Notes under the pieces: generated by a model
The model's database searches: none
Seen by the model: the letters and a program-made list of their open reading frames with translations, nothing else
Told to the model about the DNA's origin: nothing
Shown: positions 2,628-58,856 of the stretch, piece after piece
How the letters are laid out: every line of letters begins with the position of its first letter
Position numbering within the stretch: position 1 is the stretch's first letter
Source: a virus
Direction: 5' to 3' (one strand)
Virus record (IMG/VR): IMGVR_UViG_3300049215_000686
Location: 64,001 to 128,000 of that record
Length of the DNA stretch: 64,000 nucleotides
Made by a program: the position numbers and the translations under genes

Positions 2628-2899
2628 GGCTTTTTGTTCTTAATGATGTTTTCAATATCGCCCTCGGATGACTGCCCATCCTGTCCGACAGTCTTATTTT
2701 GATCATCAATTTGAGATTGGGTATCAGTTCGGTCTTGCTGGGTGGCCGTGTTAGCGGCAGCGTCTTTTTCGCCTTTGATCCAGCGCATAAAGAAAAACGC
2801 TCCGATCCCAATCCCCAATCCAAAAACAAGTTTTAGGATGATTGTTACCAAATCACCCCCAAAAACGTTGCTCAAGATATTCAATAAATCCATGACCAT
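2624..2899 (-). CDS. small membrane-anchored protein (possible lysis-related)
   Basis: One hydrophobic segment followed by a polar tail. Confidence 0.5.
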   Translation of the reverse strand: MVMDLLNILSNVFGGDLVTIILKLVFGLGIGIGAFFFMRWIKGEKDAAANTATQQDRTDTQSQIDDQNKTVGQDGQSSEGDIENIIKNKKP

Positions 2900-3867
2900 T
2901 TTCCTTTAACGGGATCATATTCACCGATGACAGATCGCCCATGGATAGTTAAAAGCCGCAAAACGTGGAATCGAGCGGGATCAAAATCAAAAATTGCTTC
3001 ACGATCAATTTTAAAATCAGAATCAAGCGCGATTACTGAAACATTCTCATCGCCTGAGATTTCAATTTTTGAATCTTTTTGGACGATTGCCGGAATGGGT
3101 AAAGGGAGAAATTTCGTATCGTAGCCATCAATGAACCAACTGATTCTAAGCGGTCCAGAAGGTAAAAAAGCAACCCCATTGAGAACACAGGTCTTCACTC
3201 CCACTTCATCTATAAATTTATTGAGCGGAATATTTAAAATACCATTTTCAACGGGAAGGTTTACCGGATTTGGCTGAACTCCACAAAGGGAACTTTCAAA
3301 AGCCACTTGAACCTGAGAAGCGTCTCCTACGTCCGGAATCACCGCAATTTGAGTTGGATTTTTACCAGCGGCCACCTTATCGGCGAATCCCATAAAAGAC
3401 TGTCCAGCGTTAAGAACTCGAATCCACAAATGTCCAACAAACGAATGAATAACGAGCCCGCTCGAATCTTCCTCAGGAAACTCGGGAGAAACAACAAAAC
3501 TAATAAGACAACTTTGAGAAGCCTTGCCCGCCAAATAATAGGGAACCAAATTGTTGCTTAAATAACGCACGGAATCAGGCAAGGGATTATCCAGTCGGCA
3601 ATTCGTCGAAACGCGAATTGTGCCTTGGTAATATCCTTGAATTGCAAATCCCACATTATCAAGATCTTGCTCGGTTAAAACCGGACAAATCCCGATCCCG
3701 TGGAAACGCTTCCCACAAGCAGAAAATTCAGCAGAATGGTAATTGGCTTGAGTAGAGGGAATCACGGAATCATTTCTGATCTGATTCCCTCCACAAGAAC
3801 TGAGAAAAAGACTTAAGAAGAGGAACCAGAAGCCGGAGGTGCAGGCGGGGCGGGAGGATTTTGCCAT
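2881..3867 (-). CDS. putative lipoprotein
   Basis: Hydrophobic stretch plus lipobox LSSC; 328-aa ORF. Confidence 0.6.
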   Translation of the reverse strand: MAKSSRPACTSGFWFLFLSLFLSSCGGNQIRNDSVIPSTQANYHSAEFSACGKRFHGIGICPVLTEQDLDNVGFAIQGYYQGTIRVSTNCRLDNPLPDSVRYLSNNLVPYYLAGKASQSCLISFVVSPEFPEEDSSGLVIHSFVGHLWIRVLNAGQSFMGFADKVAAGKNPTQIAVIPDVGDASQVQVAFESSLCGVQPNPVNLPVENGILNIPLNKFIDEVGVKTCVLNGVAFLPSGPLRISWFIDGYDTKFLPLPIPAIVQKDSKIEISGDENVSVIALDSDFKIDREAIFDFDPARFHVLRLLTIHGRSVIGEYDPVKGKWSWIY

Positions 3868-4190
3868 CCAGAAATTGCTCCTTTAATTGCTGACACAGCA
3901 CGCATCATATAATCCATCACCTTAAGCATCGTTGCGGAAAGTGGGATATTCGCATGAGGGAATACTTCAAGAACAGGCAACACGTAAGTCTGCCAAACAG
4001 TTACAATTTTTGCCGCAAGTTCATCATCAGTCTTTGACGCGGTGAGCGAAACAATAAATTGTAAGAGTTCAATGAGGATCGTCATTACAGGAACAAATGC
4101 GATCCCGTAAGCGCCAATAATGCCCAAAATACCGAATTTTGCACCCAGCATGGCAAGAAGTGGCTGAAGAATAGAAGAAATAATGTCCAT
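3813..4190 (-). CDS. membrane protein, holin-like
   Basis: SD GGAGG upstream; 2-3 hydrophobic helices; SKTDD motif. Confidence 0.5.
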   Translation of the reverse strand: MDIISSILQPLLAMLGAKFGILGIIGAYGIAFVPVMTILIELLQFIVSLTASKTDDELAAKIVTVWQTYVLPVLEVFPHANIPLSATMLKVMDYMMRAVSAIKGAISGWQNPPAPPAPPASGSSS

Positions 4191-4247
4191 AAAAACCTCC
4201 TTAATGGAATGAACCCATTATCGAAGGCAAAAGGCAGATTGAGATTT

Positions 4248-4323
4248 TGGAGCCGCTGGACCGACTTGAACGGTCATCACAATCGTACCGGGATTGTGTT
4301 TTTACCAGTTAAACTACAGCGGC
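4248..4323 (-). tRNA. tRNA-Thr(GGT)
   Basis: Cloverleaf GCCGCTG..CAGCGGC-T-CCA; anticodon loop CCGGTAC; TTCAAG T-loop. Confidence 0.9.
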
Positions 4324-4324
4324 A

Positions 4325-4410
4325 TGGAGCCGATAGGATGATTCGAACATCCGTGGGATCTCTCCGCTCGTTTACAAAACGAGTGCAATCGTCCTCTATG
4401 CGATATCGGC
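4325..4410 (-). tRNA. tRNA-Thr(TGT) with long variable arm
   Basis: GCCGATA acceptor; CTCGT-TTTGTAA-ACGAG anticodon arm; GGA-GAGA-TCC extra arm; CCA encoded. Confidence 0.85.
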
Positions 4411-4427
4411 AATAACATCGGCGAATT

Positions 4428-4501
4428 TGGAGCCTCGTGGCTGAATCGAACAGCCGATTGCTGAATACGAATCAGCAGTTATACCGTTTAACTAACGAGG
4501 C
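4428..4501 (-). tRNA. tRNA-Thr(CGT)
   Basis: GCTGA-TTCGTAT-TCAGC anticodon arm; CCA end. Confidence 0.9.
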
Positions 4502-4516
4502 AAAGATCAGCAAATT

Positions 4517-4591
4517 TGGTGCGCGAGCCGGGAATTGAACCCGAATCTCATGACTGGCAGTCACGCATCATAGCCTTTAGACCACTCACGC
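4517..4591 (-). tRNA. tRNA-Gly(GCC)
   Basis: Anticodon loop CTGCCAG; GCGTGAG/CTCGCGC acceptor; A73. Confidence 0.9.
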
Positions 4592-4593
4592 AT

Positions 4594-4668
4594 TGGACCG
4601 GGTAGCGGGAATCGAACCCGCGAATCGACGTTGGAAGCGTCGCGTGTTACCACTAGCACTACACCCGG
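4594..4668 (-). tRNA. tRNA-Gly(TCC)
   Basis: CGACG-CTTCCAA-CGTCG anticodon arm; CCA end. Confidence 0.92.
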
Positions 4669-4727
4669 AAAGAAAACTATCTTTTACAAAATCCCCCATT
4701 TTGGATAAAATAGTTTCCATTTTTAAA

Positions 4728-4808
4728 TGGCGGGGTACACGGAAGTCGAATCCGTCTGATCTCTCGCGTGACAGGCGAGTGGCCACTCCCATCGCAGCCC
4801 CGTACCCC
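4728..4808 (-). tRNA. tRNA-Asp(GTC)
   Basis: CTCGC-CTGTCAC-GCGAG anticodon arm; G73; CCA. Confidence 0.9.
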
Positions 4809-4848
4809 AAAAACAAAAACCCCAGGAACCTTTCGGCACCTGGGGTTT
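4809..4848 (-). terminator. attenuator 1 intrinsic terminator
   Basis: AAACCCCAGGTGCC-GAAA-GGTTCCTGGGG followed by TTTTTGTTTTT, abutting the 5' end of tRNA-Asp. Confidence 0.9.
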
Positions 4849-4874
4849 GGAAACTTTTTGTTATTAAGCAAAAG

Positions 4875-4952
4875 TTACACAATCACCCCAGGAAGATTTG
4901 TATCTCCGTCCGTACCGGTTCCAGTGATGGTGTTTGTAATGAATTTGCTCAT
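4875..4952 (-). CDS. Thr/Gly/Asp-rich leader peptide MSKFITNTITGTGTDGDTNLPGVIV
   Basis: ATG..TAA, 25 aa; codons 10-18 are all T/G/D; 3' part contains TTCCTGGGGT, complementary to the terminator 5' arm. Confidence 0.85.
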   Translation of the reverse strand: MSKFITNTITGTGTDGDTNLPGVIV

Positions 4953-4958
4953 ATGTTT

Positions 4959-4987
4959 ATAATACCAAAATGAGTTCAGACCCACAA
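4959..4987 (-). promoter_or_regulatory. sigma70-type promoter for leader 1 (leaderless transcript)
   Basis: TTGTGG-17 nt-TATTAT with TG extension; ATG 6 nt after the -10; no SD. Confidence 0.6.
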
Positions 4988-5002
4988 CGGTATAGTACAG
5001 AT

Positions 5003-5194
5003 ATGCCTGACATTACCATGTGCGACAATGAAAAATGTGCGCTGCGGCAAGACTGTTACCGCTTTACGGCTCAGCCTTCTCGATTTCAGTCTTATGCCCA
5101 TTTTGAGCCCCTAGACGAAACATGTTGCGATCATTTCTGGTGCAACAGTTCAGAAAAATTGGCACCGGACACAGGAGTCGAACCCGTTTCTTGA
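5003..5194 (+). CDS. small Cys-rich phage protein (MPDITMC...CYRFTA type)
   Basis: Probable leaderless start 6 nt after TATAGT; C-terminus overlaps tRNA-Trp antisense. Confidence 0.6.
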   Translation: MPDITMCDNEKCALRQDCYRFTAQPSRFQSYAHFEPLDETCCDHFWCNSSEKLAPDTGVEPVS

Positions 5195-5230
5195 ATTTTG
5201 GAGGTTCAATTGCGCCCCGCGCTATCCGGT
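5160..5230 (-). tRNA. tRNA-Trp(CCA) with reduced D-arm
   Basis: Anticodon loop CTCCAAA; T-arm ACGGG-TTCGACT-CCTGT; G73-CCA; D-arm only GCGC-GGG-GCGC. Confidence 0.75.
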
Positions 5231-5280
5231 GTCTTATCCCTTATAGGTAATAAACTGGCTTTATAACCTATGGGTAATAA

Positions 5281-5358
5281 TGGTGCCGCAGATCCGAATC
5301 GAACGGATATTATGTCTGATCTTCAGTCAGATGCCATGACCACGTAGGCGACTGCGGC
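5281..5358 (-). tRNA. tRNA-Phe(GAA)
   Basis: TCTGA-CTGAAGA-TCAGA anticodon arm; CCA. Confidence 0.9.
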
Positions 5359-5363
5359 AAATT

Positions 5364-5439
5364 TGGTGGACCGACCCGGACTTGAACCGGGAATCCCTCG
5401 GTGCAAGCGAGGAGTTTTACCAATTAACACTATCAGCCC
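5364..5439 (-). tRNA. tRNA-Ala(TGC)
   Basis: G3:U70 pair; loop CTTGCAC; CCA. Confidence 0.93.
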
Positions 5440-5444
5440 AATTT

Positions 5445-5530
5445 TGGTCGGAGGAGCAGGACTCGAACCTGCGAAGCCCAAAGACGCGTGATTTACAGTC
5501 ACGTGGGTTAGCCGCTCCCACCATCCTCCG
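5445..5530 (-). tRNA. tRNA-Tyr(GTA)
   Basis: Loop CTGTAAA; long variable region; C1:G72 acceptor; A73. Confidence 0.88.
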
Positions 5531-5735
5531 AAATTTTCACATCAACTCCGAGTTCAAACCATCCCTTCCAGTGTTCGCCATTCCAAGTTTTTCTCTCAGA
5601 CTGAAATAGCCGCTTATTATCCCGAGATCTTCCTCCAAAAATCAAGAACATGTATTCTCCGTGTTCATGAATCCGGTTTTTGGCTCGATGGCTAATTGGG
5701 ATGAGTTTGACTTTGATACCTTTGTCCATTTCCAT
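5508..5735 (-). CDS. hypothetical protein within the tRNA operon
   Basis: ORF track; 3' end runs into tRNA-Tyr. Confidence 0.5.
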   Translation of the reverse strand: MEMDKGIKVKLIPISHRAKNRIHEHGEYMFLIFGGRSRDNKRLFQSERKTWNGEHWKGWFELGVDVKISEDGGSG

Positions 5736-5914
5736 AAATCACTTTTCCGAATTGAAATCGCCTGCATCCGTCCTTGATAAACTCGTAAAGTCCGGTTCCA
5801 ATAACTCACGATCAAGGAAATCAGTTCGTCACTTTCTCCAAGAACTTTTTGAATTTCGAAATCAATATCGAGACAACTCATGTGTCGATAAAGATGGCCA
5901 GATTTAATTTTCAT
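5642..5914 (-). CDS. hypothetical protein within the tRNA operon
   Basis: ORF track; start overlaps the previous stop. Confidence 0.45.
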   Translation of the reverse strand: MKIKSGHLYRHMSCLDIDFEIQKVLGESDELISLIVSYWNRTLRVYQGRMQAISIRKSDLWKWTKVSKSNSSQLAIEPKTGFMNTENTCS

Positions 5915-6104
5915 TTTTTGGCTTCCATCGCGTCTTTCGATACCGTTTCCAAGATCTCCGAGACCTAGACCATCCTCGCTTTGAATTTTCTCCTCGATTC
6001 GGCGGACAAATAGGGCATCGAAGTTTTACCCGCGAAGCCTTCTTATAAACCGCGCTATTGGTCGTTCCCGTTAATTCGTTATGATTTCGTCTTTTATCAC
6101 CCAT
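5904..6104 (-). CDS. small very basic protein (CPICPP..N / SWKRYRKTRWK)
   Basis: SD GGGAGG upstream, sequestered in a hairpin; R/K-rich. Confidence 0.7.
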   Translation of the reverse strand: MGDKRRNHNELTGTTNSAVYKKASRVKLRCPICPPNRGENSKRGWSRSRRSWKRYRKTRWKPKNEN

Positions 6105-6118
6105 TGCATGAATCCTCC

Positions 6119-6154
6119 CTAGTGGAAGGTCATGCGTCCTCGAATGTGCTTCAT
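6119..6154 (-). CDS. micro-ORF MKHIRGRMTFH (candidate translational leader)
   Basis: TAG stop lies at the apex of the hairpin 6106-6135 that hides the downstream SD. Confidence 0.5.
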   Translation of the reverse strand: MKHIRGRMTFH

Positions 6155-6161
6155 AATTTTT

Positions 6162-6236
6162 TGGTGGGGCCGAAGAGAATCGAACTCTTTCCTGGCAGAT
6201 TAAAAGTCTGCGGTGCCGCCTTTACACCACGACCCC
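6162..6236 (-). tRNA. tRNA-Lys(TTT)
   Basis: GCAGA-CTTTTAA-TCTGC; CCA. Confidence 0.93.
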
Positions 6237-6240
6237 AATT

Positions 6241-6315
6241 TGGCGGGATCGCAGAGACTTGAACTCTGATACACGGATTAAGAGTCCGCTGTAATAGCCG
6301 TTATACGACGATCCC
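6241..6315 (-). tRNA. tRNA-Lys(CTT)
   Basis: GCGGA-CTCTTAA-TCCGT; CCA. Confidence 0.93.
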
Positions 6316-6351
6316 CAATTTTTCCTTTCGTTTTCGTTTGTGTCGTTTCAT
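6301..6351 (-). CDS. Lys/Arg micro-ORF MKRHKRKRKEKLGIVV
   Basis: SD AAAGGA; AAA-CGA codon repeats; reads into the 5' end of tRNA-Lys(CTT). Confidence 0.5.
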   Translation of the reverse strand: MKRHKRKRKEKLGIVV

Positions 6352-6368
6352 ATCGTTCCTTTAAATTT

Positions 6369-6443
6369 TGGCTCCAGGGGCAGGTTACGCTCCTGCATAT
6401 GACGCGTTAACAGCGCGTTCCTTTACTAGTCAGGCACCCTGGA
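6369..6443 (-). tRNA. tRNA-Asn(GTT) with non-canonical T-loop
   Basis: ACGCG-CTGTTAA-CGCGT; TCCAGGG acceptor; G73; T-loop AGCGTAA. Confidence 0.82.
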
Positions 6444-6885
6444 ATATATCTTTTCTTAAGCCCCGAATCTTACACGAACTGAAAGTCCCTCTCGCCATCC
6501 CAACAATTTTACAAGCATCATGTTCTGAATGTCCTAATTCTATAAGTTCAAGAACCTTAATGAACTTTTCATCAGAAATAGTCCTGGCTTCGGACTGGGG
6601 AATATCTTTAAATCTCTCACTCAAGTCTTTCTTTGTTTTTTCTAAATGGCATGACCGACAAAGCACTTGACATTTTTTAAGTTCCGCGTCTCTTTTAGAT
6701 TGAGTCCAACTCCAAATACGTGAAGAAACTTTAGTTTTAGGATCAATATGATCTAATTCCAATTCTTGCCATGATCCACATTGAACACAAGGTCCCTTTG
6801 CATCAAACCATTCCTTACGTCTTCTCGCCATCCATTCCCTTTGATACTTTCAAAGGTACTCCCTTCTTTCTTCCCTGATCGGCAT
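6430..6885 (-). CDS. HNH homing endonuclease (in-frame TGA at codon 12; ORF track starts at 6831)
   Basis: CVQCG..LELDHIDP...CQVLCRSCH; upstream in-frame MPIREERREYL*KYQREW. Confidence 0.8.
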
Positions 6886-6906
6886 ATATACAACATACCG
6901 ATCGCC

Positions 6907-6949
6907 AAAAAACGAAAACCCCGCTCAATCTTTTACGACTGGCGGGGTT
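6907..6949 (-). terminator. attenuator 2 intrinsic terminator
   Basis: AACCCCGC-CAGTC-GTAAAA-GATTG-A-GCGGGGTT followed by TTCGTTTTTT. Confidence 0.88.
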
Positions 6950-6976
6950 CTTAGAATCTTTTTTGTTTAAACAAAC

Positions 6977-7057
6977 TTACAAGAAAGATTTCACCCCGCG
7001 AGCCACCCAATTGGTCGCATTATTTTTAAAGTTATAGGCGAAATAATTCTTGTTCAT
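6977..7057 (-). CDS. Asn/Lys/Tyr/Phe/Ala/Trp-rich leader peptide MNKNYFAYNFKNNATNWVARGVKSFL
   Basis: ATG..TAA, 26 aa; 15 of residues 2-17 are N/K/Y/F/A/W; GCGGGGT in the 3' part is complementary to the terminator 5' arm. Confidence 0.85.
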   Translation of the reverse strand: MNKNYFAYNFKNNATNWVARGVKSFL

Positions 7058-7066
7058 ATATTTACT

Positions 7067-7093
7067 ATTATACCTTTTTTTGCTAGATCGCAA
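7067..7093 (-). promoter_or_regulatory. promoter for leader 2
   Basis: TTGCGA...GG-TATAAT, 9 nt before the leader ATG (15-nt spacer, so the -35 is uncertain); no SD. Confidence 0.55.
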
Positions 7094-7101
7094 CTTTATT
7101 T

Positions 7102-7371
7102 TCACTTTTTTACAGCAGGTGACGGACTCGGAGCGGGAGCCGGCGACGCATTGGAAGCAACGGGCTTACTCCAGCAAACTTCTCCGCCCTTTGAAAGGTA
7201 ACAAATCACCTCAGTCGTTTCGCACCGAGAAAAACCAACCTTTTTATCTAACTGCAAACAAAACTTTCCCTGGATTACGGGCTTTTCTTCTTTCTTTGAT
7301 TCTTTTGCAAAGGCCAGCGAAGAAACCAACATCATTAAAAAAATCCATTTTCGCATAATGTTCTCTCTCAT
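7102..7371 (-). CDS. small secreted protein
   Basis: Signal peptide MRKWIFLMMLVSSLAFA; Cys-containing core; Pro-rich tail. Confidence 0.6.
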   Translation of the reverse strand: MRENIMRKWIFLMMLVSSLAFAKESKKEEKPVIQGKFCLQLDKKVGFSRCETTEVICYLSKGGEVCWSKPVASNASPAPAPSPSPAVKK

Positions 7372-7379
7372 TCTAAAAA

Positions 7380-7800
7380 TGGTGGAGGTGGGCGGAATTG
7401 AACCGCCGTCCAGAATCTTTCAGTCACCAAGTCATTCACACGCATATCTGGTTTTACGATCCAGCAATCAGGGTACGACCCGTTTTACCGAGTCTCCACC
7501 ACTTGGTTTATGTCCAAGAACAGGAGAGGCGTTTCCGCGTCCACCAGCCGCCAGTTTAACGTCTCGACGACCCGACGTTTTTGCCTTTCTTCTGTTTCTC
7601 GGCTCAGGCAGCCTCATTGTTTCCTAACCTAGGTCAGGCTACAAGGCGGAGATCAGCCTTACGGCTGAAATCCACGCGAACGACGTTGTCATTAGCATTT
7701 GTTGTTTGCATCTTTGTTTCCGGGGAATCCCCAAGGCAGCCTCATGCTCTGCCTGCGCGCACTCAATTTCCTCGTTATCCTGTCGAAACCTGTCACCCCC
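7380..7800 (-). ncRNA. ssrA: tmRNA; tag ANDNVVRVDFSRKADLRLVA (7634-7696)
   Basis: 5' GGGGGTGACAGGTTTCGAC; 3' GACGGCGGTTCAATTCCGCCCACCTCCACCA with G3:U70; ANDN resume motif; LVA end. Confidence 0.95.
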
Positions 7801-7810
7801 ACATTAAAAG

Positions 7811-8035
7811 TTATCCCTCTAATTCTAAATCAATTTCGGAGACCTTCTCTTTTGTTGCTTCATTGAGATGCCCCGCCCACTCGATTTCTTGCTTTAACCA
7901 AGGGTAAAGATATAGGCGAAAAAACGCAAGAACATCTCGACTCTTTGTTTGGGCCGCCTGATCATAAATCTCAATCAGTTTTTCTACCCGAATCGCCGCT
8001 TCACTCATCTCAATGATTTCGGTGAGAGCGCCCAT
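7811..8035 (-). CDS. hypothetical protein
   Basis: ORF track; GGTATATT promoter-like site near 8070. Confidence 0.55.
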   Translation of the reverse strand: MGALTEIIEMSEAAIRVEKLIEIYDQAAQTKSRDVLAFFRLYLYPWLKQEIEWAGHLNEATKEKVSEIDLELEG

Positions 8036-8158
8036 TTTATGGTCCCCTTATTTCGTTGATTCACAATGTTAATATACCAAAACGGCTATTTTATAAGAGT
8101 TCCAGGCGTGTCCAACTTGACACATTGTATAAATTGGGCGTTGCGTTATTCTTGGGAT

Positions 8159-9670
8159 ATGAAGATCCAACGTCTTTTAATAATTTTGGTCAGTGGGTTC
8201 CTTATTGAGATCACGCTTTCGGCCTGTAATGCACCTACCGATGCGAACACTCAAACCAATGATTCTTCTCAATCTTCGACACAAGACGATGTTTCCAGCA
8301 GCCCTGGCAATTCAGCCGATCAAGGAAATTCACAATCTTCAAATGCAAATTCGAACTCAAGTAATTCCCCTAAAGGAAAAGGACCATCTCAGCCAGTCCC
8401 CAATCCTTCATCTACGGCTTCACCTTCCCCTACACCAACGCCGACTCCTACACCAACTCCTACGCCAACGAATTCAGCGCCGGTAATGAGCACTCTCAAT
8501 CAATCGGGAGCAGAAAATAGCGCATTGGTATTTAATTTGGTCGCCAACGATGCCGACAACGATCCTTTAACTTATTCTTGTGTGTCAAGTTGTCCTGCCG
8601 GGCTGACAGTTGATGGGCCGACCGGCAATGTGGAATGGACGCCTGCTTTTGGTACAGCCGGGACCTATCATGTCAACTTCGGAGTATCTGATGGAGTGAA
8701 CCCCCAAGTCACCCAGTCAGTCCAAATTACAATCGCTCACACCAATCGGCCCCCTGTCATTCAGCCGCTTACGTCTCAAAGCGTGAGTACTGGACAGACT
8801 TTAACCATCACTCCCGTTATTTCAGATCCAGACCAGGATGCCTTAACTTTAACCATGAATAACCCTCTGCCCGCCAACTCTGCTTTTAATGGTACTTCTT
8901 TCAGTTTTAGCCCCACCAACGCACAAGCCGGACAATATACCGTGACCTTTAATCTCAGCGATGGTGTTTTAACGACTTCTGAAAGAGTGACTATCACATC
9001 AAACTCGGTGAACATCGCGCCGCAAATGGCTTCGATCGCCAGCCAAAGTATTTCCCAACAACAGCCCATTACATTTGCCGTTTCCGCGACCGATGCGAAC
9101 AATGATCCGTTAGTCTACAGCAGCGCGAATCTTCCAGCAGGAGCGACTTTTGCTAATAATCAATTCTCTTGGACACCTTCTTGCGGACAAAACGGGACTT
9201 ATACGCCGACCTTTACGGTAACCGATACCGGAGGTTTGACGGATACAAAATCGCCCACAATCACGGTTTCAGCCAGCGACTATTACACAGTTACTTGGAA
9301 CTCCAACATTGCTCCCTCATTATCGGGAACAAACGGAAACTCGACAAATGCCTATGCGGGAATCGGGTTTTATCTCGGAGCAGGAGGACTGACCTATTCC
9401 TATGTTGCTGAATTCGATTGTAATAACAAGACATGGAATAAGGCATGGAATGCTGGAACAAGGACGCTTTCGGTAACAAATCCGTTTGGGAGTCTCGATC
9501 CCGGCAAACATTCCTTCTTGGTCTATGTTCAAGACTCTTGTGGAACGAAATATTACCGCTTCATTCAGGTCACGGGATATAACGGCAGTTTCTCGATTCA
9601 GAAATCAGACCAAGGAGCGACTTATTCAACCGCTGGACTTTGTGGTGGAGGCCATGTTTATCAGCATTAA
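8159..9670 (+). CDS. lipoprotein with Ser/Pro-Thr linker and tandem Ig/cadherin-like domains
   Basis: MKIQRLLIILV...LSAC lipobox; PTPTPT linker; repeated N.AP...D.D.D.LTY...WTP...G.Y...V.D units. Confidence 0.85.
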   Translation: MKIQRLLIILVSGFLIEITLSACNAPTDANTQTNDSSQSSTQDDVSSSPGNSADQGNSQSSNANSNSSNSPKGKGPSQPVPNPSSTASPSPTPTPTPTPTPTPTNSAPVMSTLNQSGAENSALVFNLVANDADNDPLTYSCVSSCPAGLTVDGPTGNVEWTPAFGTAGTYHVNFGVSDGVNPQVTQSVQITIAHTNRPPVIQPLTSQSVSTGQTLTITPVISDPDQDALTLTMNNPLPANSAFNGTSFSFSPTNAQAGQYTVTFNLSDGVLTTSERVTITSNSVNIAPQMASIASQSISQQQPITFAVSATDANNDPLVYSSANLPAGATFANNQFSWTPSCGQNGTYTPTFTVTDTGGLTDTKSPTITVSASDYYTVTWNSNIAPSLSGTNGNSTNAYAGIGFYLGAGGLTYSYVAEFDCNNKTWNKAWNAGTRTLSVTNPFGSLDPGKHSFLVYVQDSCGTKYYRFIQVTGYNGSFSIQKSDQGATYSTAGLCGGGHVYQH

Positions 9671-37579: not shown

Positions 37580-38026
37580 CTAGTGAGATGAAAAATATTC
37601 CTTCCACTCACTCCGCGTCCAGGCATACTGACCGATCAATTCAGAAGCCTGAGCATAAGGCAAAGACCAATAAGACTGGAAGATGGAAGTCGCCCATCTG
37701 ACCGCAGATTTATCGGCTTTTACTCCTAAATCAGCGAGTTCTTCAATCAAGTCTTCTTCGGTATCACGCCATGAGGAAATGTCGTCTCCAAACAAAAGCC
37801 CAAAGACGGGATCTTTTCTCAACAACAAATGGCCCACCTGAAAAAGAAGGGAAGGGATAGCCTCTAAAGACTCTCTCGTTTCTCCCACTTCAATAGTCTT
37901 TTTTGTTACATCTAAGACGCTTTCTCCCGGAGAGATTTCATGACTGGCCAAAAGCCGATAATCAGGAGCAAGAGCCCGAACGATCCTTCTAACGACATGA
38001 AAATCGTTCATTTGCTCTATGCTCAC
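37580..38026 (-). CDS. hypothetical protein
   Basis: ORF track. Confidence 0.55.
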   Translation of the reverse strand: MSIEQMNDFHVVRRIVRALAPDYRLLASHEISPGESVLDVTKKTIEVGETRESLEAIPSLLFQVGHLLLRKDPVFGLLFGDDISSWRDTEEDLIEELADLGVKADKSAVRWATSIFQSYWSLPYAQASELIGQYAWTRSEWKEYFSSH

Positions 38027-58206: not shown

Positions 58207-58235
58207 TTGTACAATCTAGGTGAGAAAGGTATATT
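58207..58235 (+). promoter_or_regulatory. promoter for the ncRNA array
   Basis: TTGTAC-17 nt-TATATT. Confidence 0.7.
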
Positions 58236-58282
58236 AACAGTAAGGAAGTTCCTAAAATTTTAGAAGTATCGATCTTTGAAAA

Positions 58283-58473
58283 TTTGAGAGTTCCCCAGGT
58301 TATTGCTTACAAGCCGCTCCCGCAAGGGAGCAAAAGTTGGTTCGACTCCAACTTCCCCCACCTTAGCCCTCGACTCGTTCGAGGATTAAATTGGGGGAAA
58401 CGCCGTGTGGACGGCAACTGTCATTATCAGACAGAGTGAAAACTCGAAAGCAGCGGCCACTCGAACTCTCAAA
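58283..58473 (+). ncRNA. Y RNA-like 1 (YrlA-type) with permuted tRNA domain
   Basis: Terminal stem GAGAGTTC/GAACTCTC; CTTACAAGC; T-arm GTTGG-TTCGACT-CCAAC, closed acceptor, D-like and anticodon-like arms. Confidence 0.75.
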
Positions 58474-58479
58474 CAATTT

Positions 58480-58621
58480 TGGAAGTCCCCCAGATTTCAC
58501 TTACAAGCACGCTGGTTCGAATCCAGCCTTCTCCGGGGAAACTCGGGAGAGGTAGTCTAGTGGTTAAGACAATCGAATGTTAATCGATCAAAAACGAAAG
58601 TGATATCAACTTGGACTTCCA
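58480..58621 (+). ncRNA. Y RNA-like 2 with permuted tRNA-Asn-like domain
   Basis: GGAAGTCC/GGACTTCC; CTTACAAGC; GCTGG-TTCGAAT-CCAGC; TAGTCTAGTGGTTAAGAC D-arm; ATCGA-ATGTTAA-TCGAT. Confidence 0.8.
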
Positions 58622-58625
58622 TACA

Positions 58626-58721
58626 AGTTTGCCCGTCCCCTCTAATGACGCTTACAAGCAATCGTCCAATGGTAGGACATCTGTCACAAAAAAAAAGCGT
58701 TATTGACTTGGACGGGCAACT
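58626..58721 (+). ncRNA. Y RNA-like 3 (minimal)
   Basis: TGCCCGTCC/GGACGGGCA; CTTACAAGC; single D-arm-like hairpin. Confidence 0.7.
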
Positions 58722-58736
58722 CAAATTTAATCAGTT

Positions 58737-58856
58737 TGGGCGCTCCACCGCGAGTTACTTACAAGCAAATTTGGGGTCGTACCCCAGATCCCCGCCAATT
58801 TCGGGGATCTTCCTGCGAGGGAAATTGAATGAAAGTAATCTGCACTTGAGCGCCCA
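58737..58856 (+). ncRNA. Y RNA-like 4
   Basis: TGGGCGCTC/GAGCGCCCA; CTTACAAGC; three internal hairpins. Confidence 0.7.

Follow-up and report, generated by a model that had tools for sequence, protein, structure and literature searches.

How can the tRNA genes of a phage be transcribed when a strong intrinsic terminator stands directly before the first of them, and why is this terminator preceded by a short open reading frame (ORF) crowded with codons for the same amino acids? We addressed this question in a window of 64,000 nucleotides, which comprises bases 64001-128000 of a single 157,131-bp phage contig with a G+C content of 45%. Genes for a DnaB-like helicase and for HNH and homing endonucleases are present in the window, as is a long, dense block of genes on the minus strand; 16 tRNAs and one tmRNA were identified by ARAGORN in the 157-kb genome. 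The best match of the helicase was found in Myxococcus phage Mx1 (28% identity), and the phage has no close cultured relative. An earlier note on this DNA had interpreted the locus as an attenuator responding to Thr, Gly, and Asp codons, an interpretation that is supported by conservation, a coding signature, a predicted structural switch, covariation, and the codon sets of paralogous leaders. Judging from the anatomy, conservation, covariation, and codon-to-tRNA match of the element, we consider it likely that it is a ribosome-mediated transcription attenuator gating a phage tRNA operon. The phage would then probably make its Asp, Gly, and Thr tRNAs only while ribosomes read these codons slowly.

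The leader ORF and a putative promoter region upstream of tRNA-Asp

The genes downstream of the element are six tRNA genes on the minus strand (4248-4808), namely tRNA-Asp(gtc), Gly(tcc), Gly(gcc), Thr(cgt), Thr(tgt), and Thr(ggt). These ARAGORN calls agree with the earlier placement of the attenuator upstream of one Asp, two Gly, and three Thr tRNAs with the Thr anticodons TGT, GGT, and CGT. All of them except tRNA-Asp were confirmed by Rfam; the Rfam tRNA model reported no tRNA-Asp at E ≤ 1, while ARAGORN calls an 81-nt tRNA-Asp(gtc) at 4808-4728 as well as one in all five relatives described below.

The leader ORF (4952-4875, minus strand) runs from ATG to TAA (4877-4875) and comprises 25 codons. 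No Shine-Dalgarno sequence was found at this ORF, although ordinary genes of the phage have one. Codons 10-18 (4899-4925, minus strand) form the run of nine consecutive Thr/Gly/Asp codons that had been reported at this position, and further Thr codons are present at positions 6 and 8. As also described before, the leader uses all four Thr codons together with GGA, GGT, and GGG for Gly and GAC and GAT for Asp. Two Thr/Gly/Asp runs of at least nine codons, one of which is the leader ORF, were found in the six frames of the whole 157-kb genome against 0.004 expected, and a chance origin of the run was rejected. Moreover, Thr, Gly, and Asp codons fill 56-81% of the core of the six orthologous leaders, compared with 19% in the long ORFs of the phage. 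The locus thus has a short ORF with clustered codons of the amino acids that would be sensed, as is found in leader-peptide attenuators.

A promoter-like region (4959-4987, minus strand) precedes the ORF. It consists of a TTG-type -35 element (4987-4982) located 17 nt upstream of the -10 element, a conserved TCTA-type element (about 4981-4977), and an extended -10 element, TATTAT (4964-4959), the last base of which lies 6 nt before the ATG. The motif and a -10-to-ATG spacing of 6-9 nt are common to the 13 leaders tabulated in this study and two more in L022 (a contig stretch introduced below), and the spacing is exactly 6 nt in all six Asp/Gly/Thr orthologs. With this spacing, the 5' end of the transcript would lie at or next to the AUG, so that the transcript would be leaderless or nearly so; we infer from it both a leaderless transcript start and leaderless initiation at the AUG. 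The neighboring gene on the 5' side of the attenuator (5018-5194), which matches phrog_20586 from an internal Met, is encoded on the opposite strand. Therefore, the Asp/Gly/Thr unit needs its own promoter, with a start within the 65 bp between them. A regex search found only four occurrences of the promoter motif in the genome. One of these copies is situated at window position 58214 (plus strand), at the start of an array of non-coding RNAs (58207-58856) reported in the earlier note, and the motif may represent a promoter class for RNA genes.

Orthologous and paralogous leaders

Relatives were reached via helicase homologues, which led to metagenome contigs of 18-172 kb. Five related uncultured phages (L001, L002, L003, L008, and L010), whose helicases are 58-66% identical, keep the tRNA cluster with Asp first, followed by Gly and Thr, and with reduced sets in L008 and L010. 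The cluster was absent near the helicase of the more distant relatives L005-L007. Other searches were less productive: blastn of the region against phage records returned tRNA matches only, a single-protein helicase search of viral contigs gave no match, helicase-alignment searches of viral and metagenome contigs yielded just distant loci lacking the tRNA cluster, and the terminator loop region, used as an exact pattern, had no match in contigs of either kind. Myxococcus phage Mx1, the closest cultured relative, has approximately 29 tRNAs, with neither such leaders nor a match to the covariance model built from the orthologs.

The same module precedes tRNA-Asp in all five relatives, consisting of a -10 box, an ORF, a hairpin that starts at the stop codon, and a G+C-rich terminator whose U-tract directly adjoins the tRNA. 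The orthologous leader ORFs have 24-26 codons and are rich in Thr, Gly, and Asp. In a codon-wise alignment they share their start and stop columns, and the length of every indel is divisible by three. At several aligned codons, Thr, Gly, and Asp replace one another, which suggests that the leader codons are selected for membership of this set rather than for the peptide sequence. Variability by codon position (0.30, 0.41, and 0.44) does not follow the classical coding pattern, a point against the attenuator reading, although it fits selection on set membership. Another point against this reading is that the leaders of L008 and L010 use Thr and Gly codons beyond those read by their own reduced tRNA sets under strict wobble. 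The in-frame indels, the constancy of the start and stop columns, and the -10 box located 6-9 nt ahead of the AUG are indirect signs that the ORF may be translated.

A covariance model built from the six orthologs also detected elements before other tRNA operons. The second attenuator (window 6908-7105, minus strand) has an apparently leaderless ORF at 7056-6976 and a terminator extending to about 6908. It is followed by an HNH gene and then by tRNA-Asn, two tRNA-Lys, tRNA-Tyr, Ala, Phe, and Trp; its leader core consists of 89% Asn, Lys, Tyr, Ala, Phe, and Trp, and the element is kept in all five relatives. The third attenuator (minus strand; genome about 155,860-155,960, corresponding to L018 959-1051) precedes tRNA-Arg, Met, Ile, and Val, and its leader is rich in Arg, Met, Ile, Val, and Ser codons. 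No tRNA-Ser was found in the genome containing the window; in L022, another stretch of the contig of L001, the orthologous operon ends in a tRNA-Ser. The third-leader orthologue in L022 precedes tRNA-Arg, Met, Ile, Val, and Ser, and 89% of its core consists of these five amino acids. A fourth type was identified at L022 4468-4613, in which a leader rich in His, Glu, Cys, and Leu and a terminator precede tRNA-His, Glu, Cys, Leu, Leu, and Glu; the genome containing the window lacks the His, Glu, Cys, and Leu tRNAs of this type. Among the other covariance-model matches, those at L010 3679-3765 and L008 2876-2967 were rejected as ordinary terminators after a 504-aa gene, lacking the G-run strand, and those at window 2788-2871 and 37821-37924 as noise.

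Several additional features were observed around these operons. The HNH endonuclease gene (6430-6831, minus strand) is inserted between the second terminator and the first tRNA; it is absent in four relatives, and L002 has approximately 130 nt of other sequence at this site. A tRNA at window 6372-6443 (minus strand), found by Rfam only (45.7 bits) and with an anticodon read as GTT (Asn), extends over the final 14 bases of the HNH ORF. A Lys/Arg-rich mini-ORF (6316-6371, minus strand) is located in the spacer that separates tRNA-Asn from tRNA-Lys(ctt); it continues into the tRNA, lacks a terminator, and could be either a product of chance within the A-rich spacer or an additional site of sensing. 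A tRNA-Trp(CCA) at window positions about 5152-5226 (minus strand) was missed by both ARAGORN and Rfam at E ≤ 1; it aligns with the called tRNA-Trp of L003 and L010, with an identical anticodon loop, and it lies antisense to the 3' end of plus-strand gene 5018-5194, with which it overlaps. A tyrosine-phosphatase-like gene (L018 1145-1588, minus strand) was found upstream of the third attenuator; its two top-scoring named bacterial homologues belong to Bdellovibrionota (42-43% identity), a weak hint as to the host.

Across 15 leaders of four types, the mean fraction of codons belonging to the set of the leader's own operon was 0.75, compared with 0.08 for the sets of the other operons and a proteome background of 0.18-0.28. 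In our view, this match between paralogous leaders and their own tRNA sets is the strongest argument for reading the element as an attenuator. It also bears on the possibility that the ORF encodes a functional micropeptide and that the terminator merely ends a small gene. The conserved length of the ORF and the similar C-terminal residues of the orthologs (Gly-Val followed by hydrophobic residues) would be consistent with a micropeptide. However, the conserved C-terminus is encoded by the same stretch that forms the RNA pairing strand described below, the remaining peptide varies freely inside the Thr/Gly/Asp set, and paralogs share the RNA layout while their peptides are unrelated. Furthermore, a terminator with this function would deprive the tRNA operon of a promoter. 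A micropeptide therefore appears extremely improbable to us.

The terminator and a predicted competing structure

The intrinsic terminator (4847-4818, minus strand) consists of a 5' arm at 4847-4835, a GAAA loop at 4834-4831, and a 3' arm at 4830-4818, with a folding energy of -23.3 kcal/mol (z = -4.4). It is followed by a U-tract (4819-4809, minus strand) with 10 U in 11 nt. The earlier statement that the U-tract ends directly before nucleotide 1 of tRNA-Asp is accurate, as its last base is 4809 and the tRNA called by ARAGORN starts at 4808. Only six strong terminator-like sites were found in the 157-kb genome, and three of them belong to tRNA-operon attenuators. An intrinsic terminator thus lies between the leader ORF and the genes that would be regulated, and it is kept in the relatives.

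The ORF and the terminator are connected by a 10-nt repeat (4819-4828 and 4885-4894). This repeat, which had been noticed before, is exact, and its two copies are the only ones in the window, against 0.13 expected. The copy at 4885-4894 (minus strand; region 2), which reproduces exactly a part of the terminator 3' arm, corresponds to leader codons 20-23, is complementary to the terminator 5' arm, and represents the putative antiterminator strand. Between the two pairing strands, an inner hairpin (4876-4852, minus strand) begins inside the stop codon and would be enclosed by the antiterminator. The inner helix that had been proposed to extend the antiterminator is present at this position, yet it is weak on its own (-2.8 kcal/mol). 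The corresponding position is occupied by a hairpin in all orthologs, with differing sequences.

The switch was modeled by folding the RNA that exists before the terminator 3' arm is synthesized, with a ribosome footprint placed on it. With the footprint in the middle of the codon run, the last codons of the ORF and the terminator 5' arm were predicted to pair and to enclose the inner hairpin in all six orthologs (-20.6 to -32.5 kcal/mol). For the window, the nascent-RNA antiterminator had an energy of -20.6 kcal/mol (z = -3.5). The terminators of the six orthologs, folded as 62-nt tails, are comparable to the antiterminators (-21.9 to -31.1 kcal/mol). With the footprint at the stop codon, short local stems at most were predicted (0 to -4.7 kcal/mol), leaving the terminator 5' arm free of long-range pairing. 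These nascent folds, in which the alternative antiterminator is predicted in six of six cases, are in line with the claim that the strand of codons 20-23 (L-P-G-V) competes for the pairing of the terminator. The element is thus predicted to have an antiterminator that draws on the 5' arm of the terminator and is hidden once a ribosome sits on the stop codon, as in leader-peptide attenuators. A ribosome stalled up to codon ~16 leaves 4892-4885 free, and at codons 17-18 its footprint starts to cover the antiterminator strand. Thus, the effective control codons would be the earlier ones only.

In the nascent fold of the window, the antiterminator also formed without any ribosome, so that untranslated read-in transcripts would read through. 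No conserved 1:2 pairing that would enforce termination without translation was found in the nascent-RNA folds. A small hairpin within the ORF, directly 5' of the G-run (4892-4907, minus strand), was predicted at the corresponding position in all 13 attenuators and may, as a speculation, be a pause or 1:2-type element. When the complete leader was folded at equilibrium, with the ribosome footprint masked, the terminator was present in every case, even with a stalled ribosome. Therefore, any switch must be kinetic. The switch of the trp leader is likewise kinetic.

Comparison among the phages showed that the flanks of the shared G-run/C-run core vary while their complementarity is retained. In L001 and L008, the flank is a better pairing partner for the ORF strand than for the 3' arm of the terminator itself, which argues that the pairing is not a mere by-product of a duplicated arm. 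Duplexes between ORF strands and terminator arms had a mean energy of -17.6 kcal/mol for cognate pairs and -14.1 kcal/mol for non-cognate pairs across 13 attenuators (permutation p = 0.0002). For the six orthologs alone, the count in the same test was 29 of 720 permutations, and the covariation inside the Asp/Gly/Thr element by itself is modest. RNAalifold recovered only the terminator from a MAFFT alignment because the arms of L002 and L003 were misaligned; for this reason, the pairing arms were compared per sequence rather than by alignment columns. Terminators after long ORFs, of which there are two in the genome, were too few to serve as a control for pairing between ORF ends and terminators.

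These results can be weighed against the view that the hairpin acts constitutively, as a terminator or insulator, or serves the 5' processing or stability of the tRNA precursor, with an untranslated, irrelevant mini-ORF and with tRNAs produced by partial read-through or from another promoter. The strength of the terminator and its presence in every equilibrium fold would agree with this view, as would the lack of a Shine-Dalgarno sequence at the ORF and the similar terminators that end ordinary genes in the relatives. However, it would leave unexplained the conserved ORF with its fixed ends and in-frame indels, a leader composition that tracks the tRNA sets of four operon types, and the retained complementarity between the 3' end of the ORF and the terminator 5' arm. 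Another promoter would also have no space between the U-tract and tRNA-Asp, and the Asp-Gly tRNA spacers of the relatives are only 8-13 nt long. We thus regard a constitutive element as very unlikely.

Alternative terminator and antiterminator folds are also a hallmark of riboswitches and T-boxes, and the conserved small hairpins would equally suit an RNA-only switch that binds a protein, a small molecule, or, in a T-box-like manner, uncharged tRNA, with an incidental open frame. However, T-box and riboswitch models gave no match at E ≤ 10 in the region 4790-5010 or at E ≤ 1 in the region 3500-9000, and the control region is conserved by amino-acid class rather than by sequence or structure. 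Such a switch would also be at odds with indels in multiples of three, the fixed distance between the AUG and the -10 element, and four paralogous types that differ precisely by codon set. Accordingly, an RNA-only switch seems to us highly improbable, and the translated attenuator is retained as the preferred reading below.

Known attenuators and a possible role in tRNA supply

Leader-peptide attenuation is textbook knowledge for amino-acid operons. In ilvGMEDA, hisL, trpL, pheL, and leuL, the position of the ribosome on clustered regulatory codons selects the antiterminator or the terminator. The leader of the E. coli thr operon, thrL, the sequence of which was compared here, resembles the phage leader in several respects: it has a Thr-rich ORF ending in Gly codons, an intrinsic terminator directly downstream of the ORF, and an ORF 3' end that is repeated in the terminator 3' arm and can pair with the 5' arm. 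thrL senses Thr and Ile, and the sensing of several amino acids is thus a further parallel. In contrast to thrL, the phage element would control tRNA genes, is apparently leaderless without a Shine-Dalgarno sequence, and uses a Thr/Gly/Asp set that mirrors the tRNAs of its operon. Full-length sub-threshold alignments were obtained with Thr_leader (RF00506; 16.8 bits against a gathering threshold of 55) and, as the best sub-threshold Rfam match in a 221-nt region, with His_leader (RF00514; 23.7 bits against 49); neither score makes the element a member, and the alignments indicate architectural resemblance. A 5.5-kb scan (3500-9000) gave no match to these two families at E ≤ 1.

Unlike the operons of the enterobacterial leaders, the phage operon yields the decoding tRNAs themselves, which would close a loop on tRNA supply. 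The bacterial pheM leader of pheST attenuates an aminoacyl-tRNA synthetase operon in response to a single amino acid. In pheM and, as proposed here, in the phage element, leader-peptide attenuation acts on the translation machinery rather than on biosynthesis, but pheM controls a synthetase whereas the phage element would control tRNA genes. T-box riboswitches bind tRNA directly and need no translation; there, as proposed here, the decision between terminator and antiterminator reports the state of specific tRNAs, but the phage element has a coding signature and no T-box match. To our knowledge, the described leader-peptide attenuators all regulate amino-acid biosynthesis or synthetase genes, whereas the genes downstream of this leader are six tRNA genes. 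A full-text literature search did not turn up any account of tRNA genes controlled by leader-peptide attenuation. The transcription of tRNAs is generally taught as being under growth-rate or stringent control rather than gated codon by codon.

Based on these features, the following mechanism is proposed. Transcription would begin at the AUG or a few bases away from it, and a ribosome would load on the emerging 5' end. When Thr, Gly, and Asp codons are decoded fast, the ribosome would reach the stop codon, where its footprint would hide codons 20-23 together with the first strand of the inner hairpin; the terminator would then form, and the transcript would end in the U-tract, one base before tRNA-Asp. 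When decoding is slow, the ribosome would stall upstream, allowing codons 20-23 to pair with the terminator 5' arm in a helix stacked on the inner hairpin. This antiterminator would block the terminator, and RNA polymerase would enter the genes for tRNA-Asp, the two tRNA-Gly, and the three tRNA-Thr. The leader would later be removed from the tRNA transcript by RNase P.

Both the direction of this regulation and the nature of its signal are deduced. Since the control codons are read by the very tRNAs whose genes would be regulated, the signal is likely to be a shortage of those tRNAs during infection, which would result in a negative-feedback, on-demand supply. Alternatively, the same attenuator could report amino-acid supply through tRNA charging rather than the amount of tRNA, since stalling alone cannot separate an uncharged tRNA from a missing one and the layout is that of thrL. 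However, extra tRNA would give no relief from starvation, so that the feedback would be open, and each leader matches exactly its tRNA set, including multi-amino-acid sets without a shared biosynthetic pathway. The sequence cannot decide between the two signals; sensing of tRNA supply is the more sensible logic, and we consider sensing of amino-acid supply unlikely.

We lean slightly towards a broader proposal, in which this clade of phages runs closed-loop tRNA homeostats. Each tRNA operon would carry a leaderless test ORF written in the codons of its own tRNAs and would be transcribed only on slow decoding of this ORF, so that a depletion of particular host tRNAs during infection would be sensed and answered with the matching phage tRNAs. 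Such a depletion could arise from decay after host shut-off, from mismatched codon usage, or from cleavage by host anticodon nucleases. If this is true, phages gauge the decoding speed at specific codons and replenish only the matching tRNAs, which would bear on why phages carry tRNAs and on how they withstand a loss of host tRNAs or defenses that cleave tRNAs. In addition, the element is modular, multi-input, and approximately 180 nt long, and could be used to sense the availability of tRNAs. The variants in one phage clade, with their four codon sets, would represent a natural specificity-swap experiment.

Other features related to translation were also observed in these genomes. tRNAs with a CTA anticodon (amber suppressors, labeled Pyl by ARAGORN) are located at L002 5995-6153 and L003 3936-4009, and small genes with an RF-1 domain at L002 1008-1385 and L008 5461-5844; the leader ORF of L008 ends in TAG. 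The CTA tRNAs and RF-1-domain genes hint at reassignment or suppression of TAG in part of the clade. Additionally, the tmRNA of the phage (window 7380-7800, minus strand; 87 bits to RF00023) has an unusual tag ending in Leu-Val-Ala.
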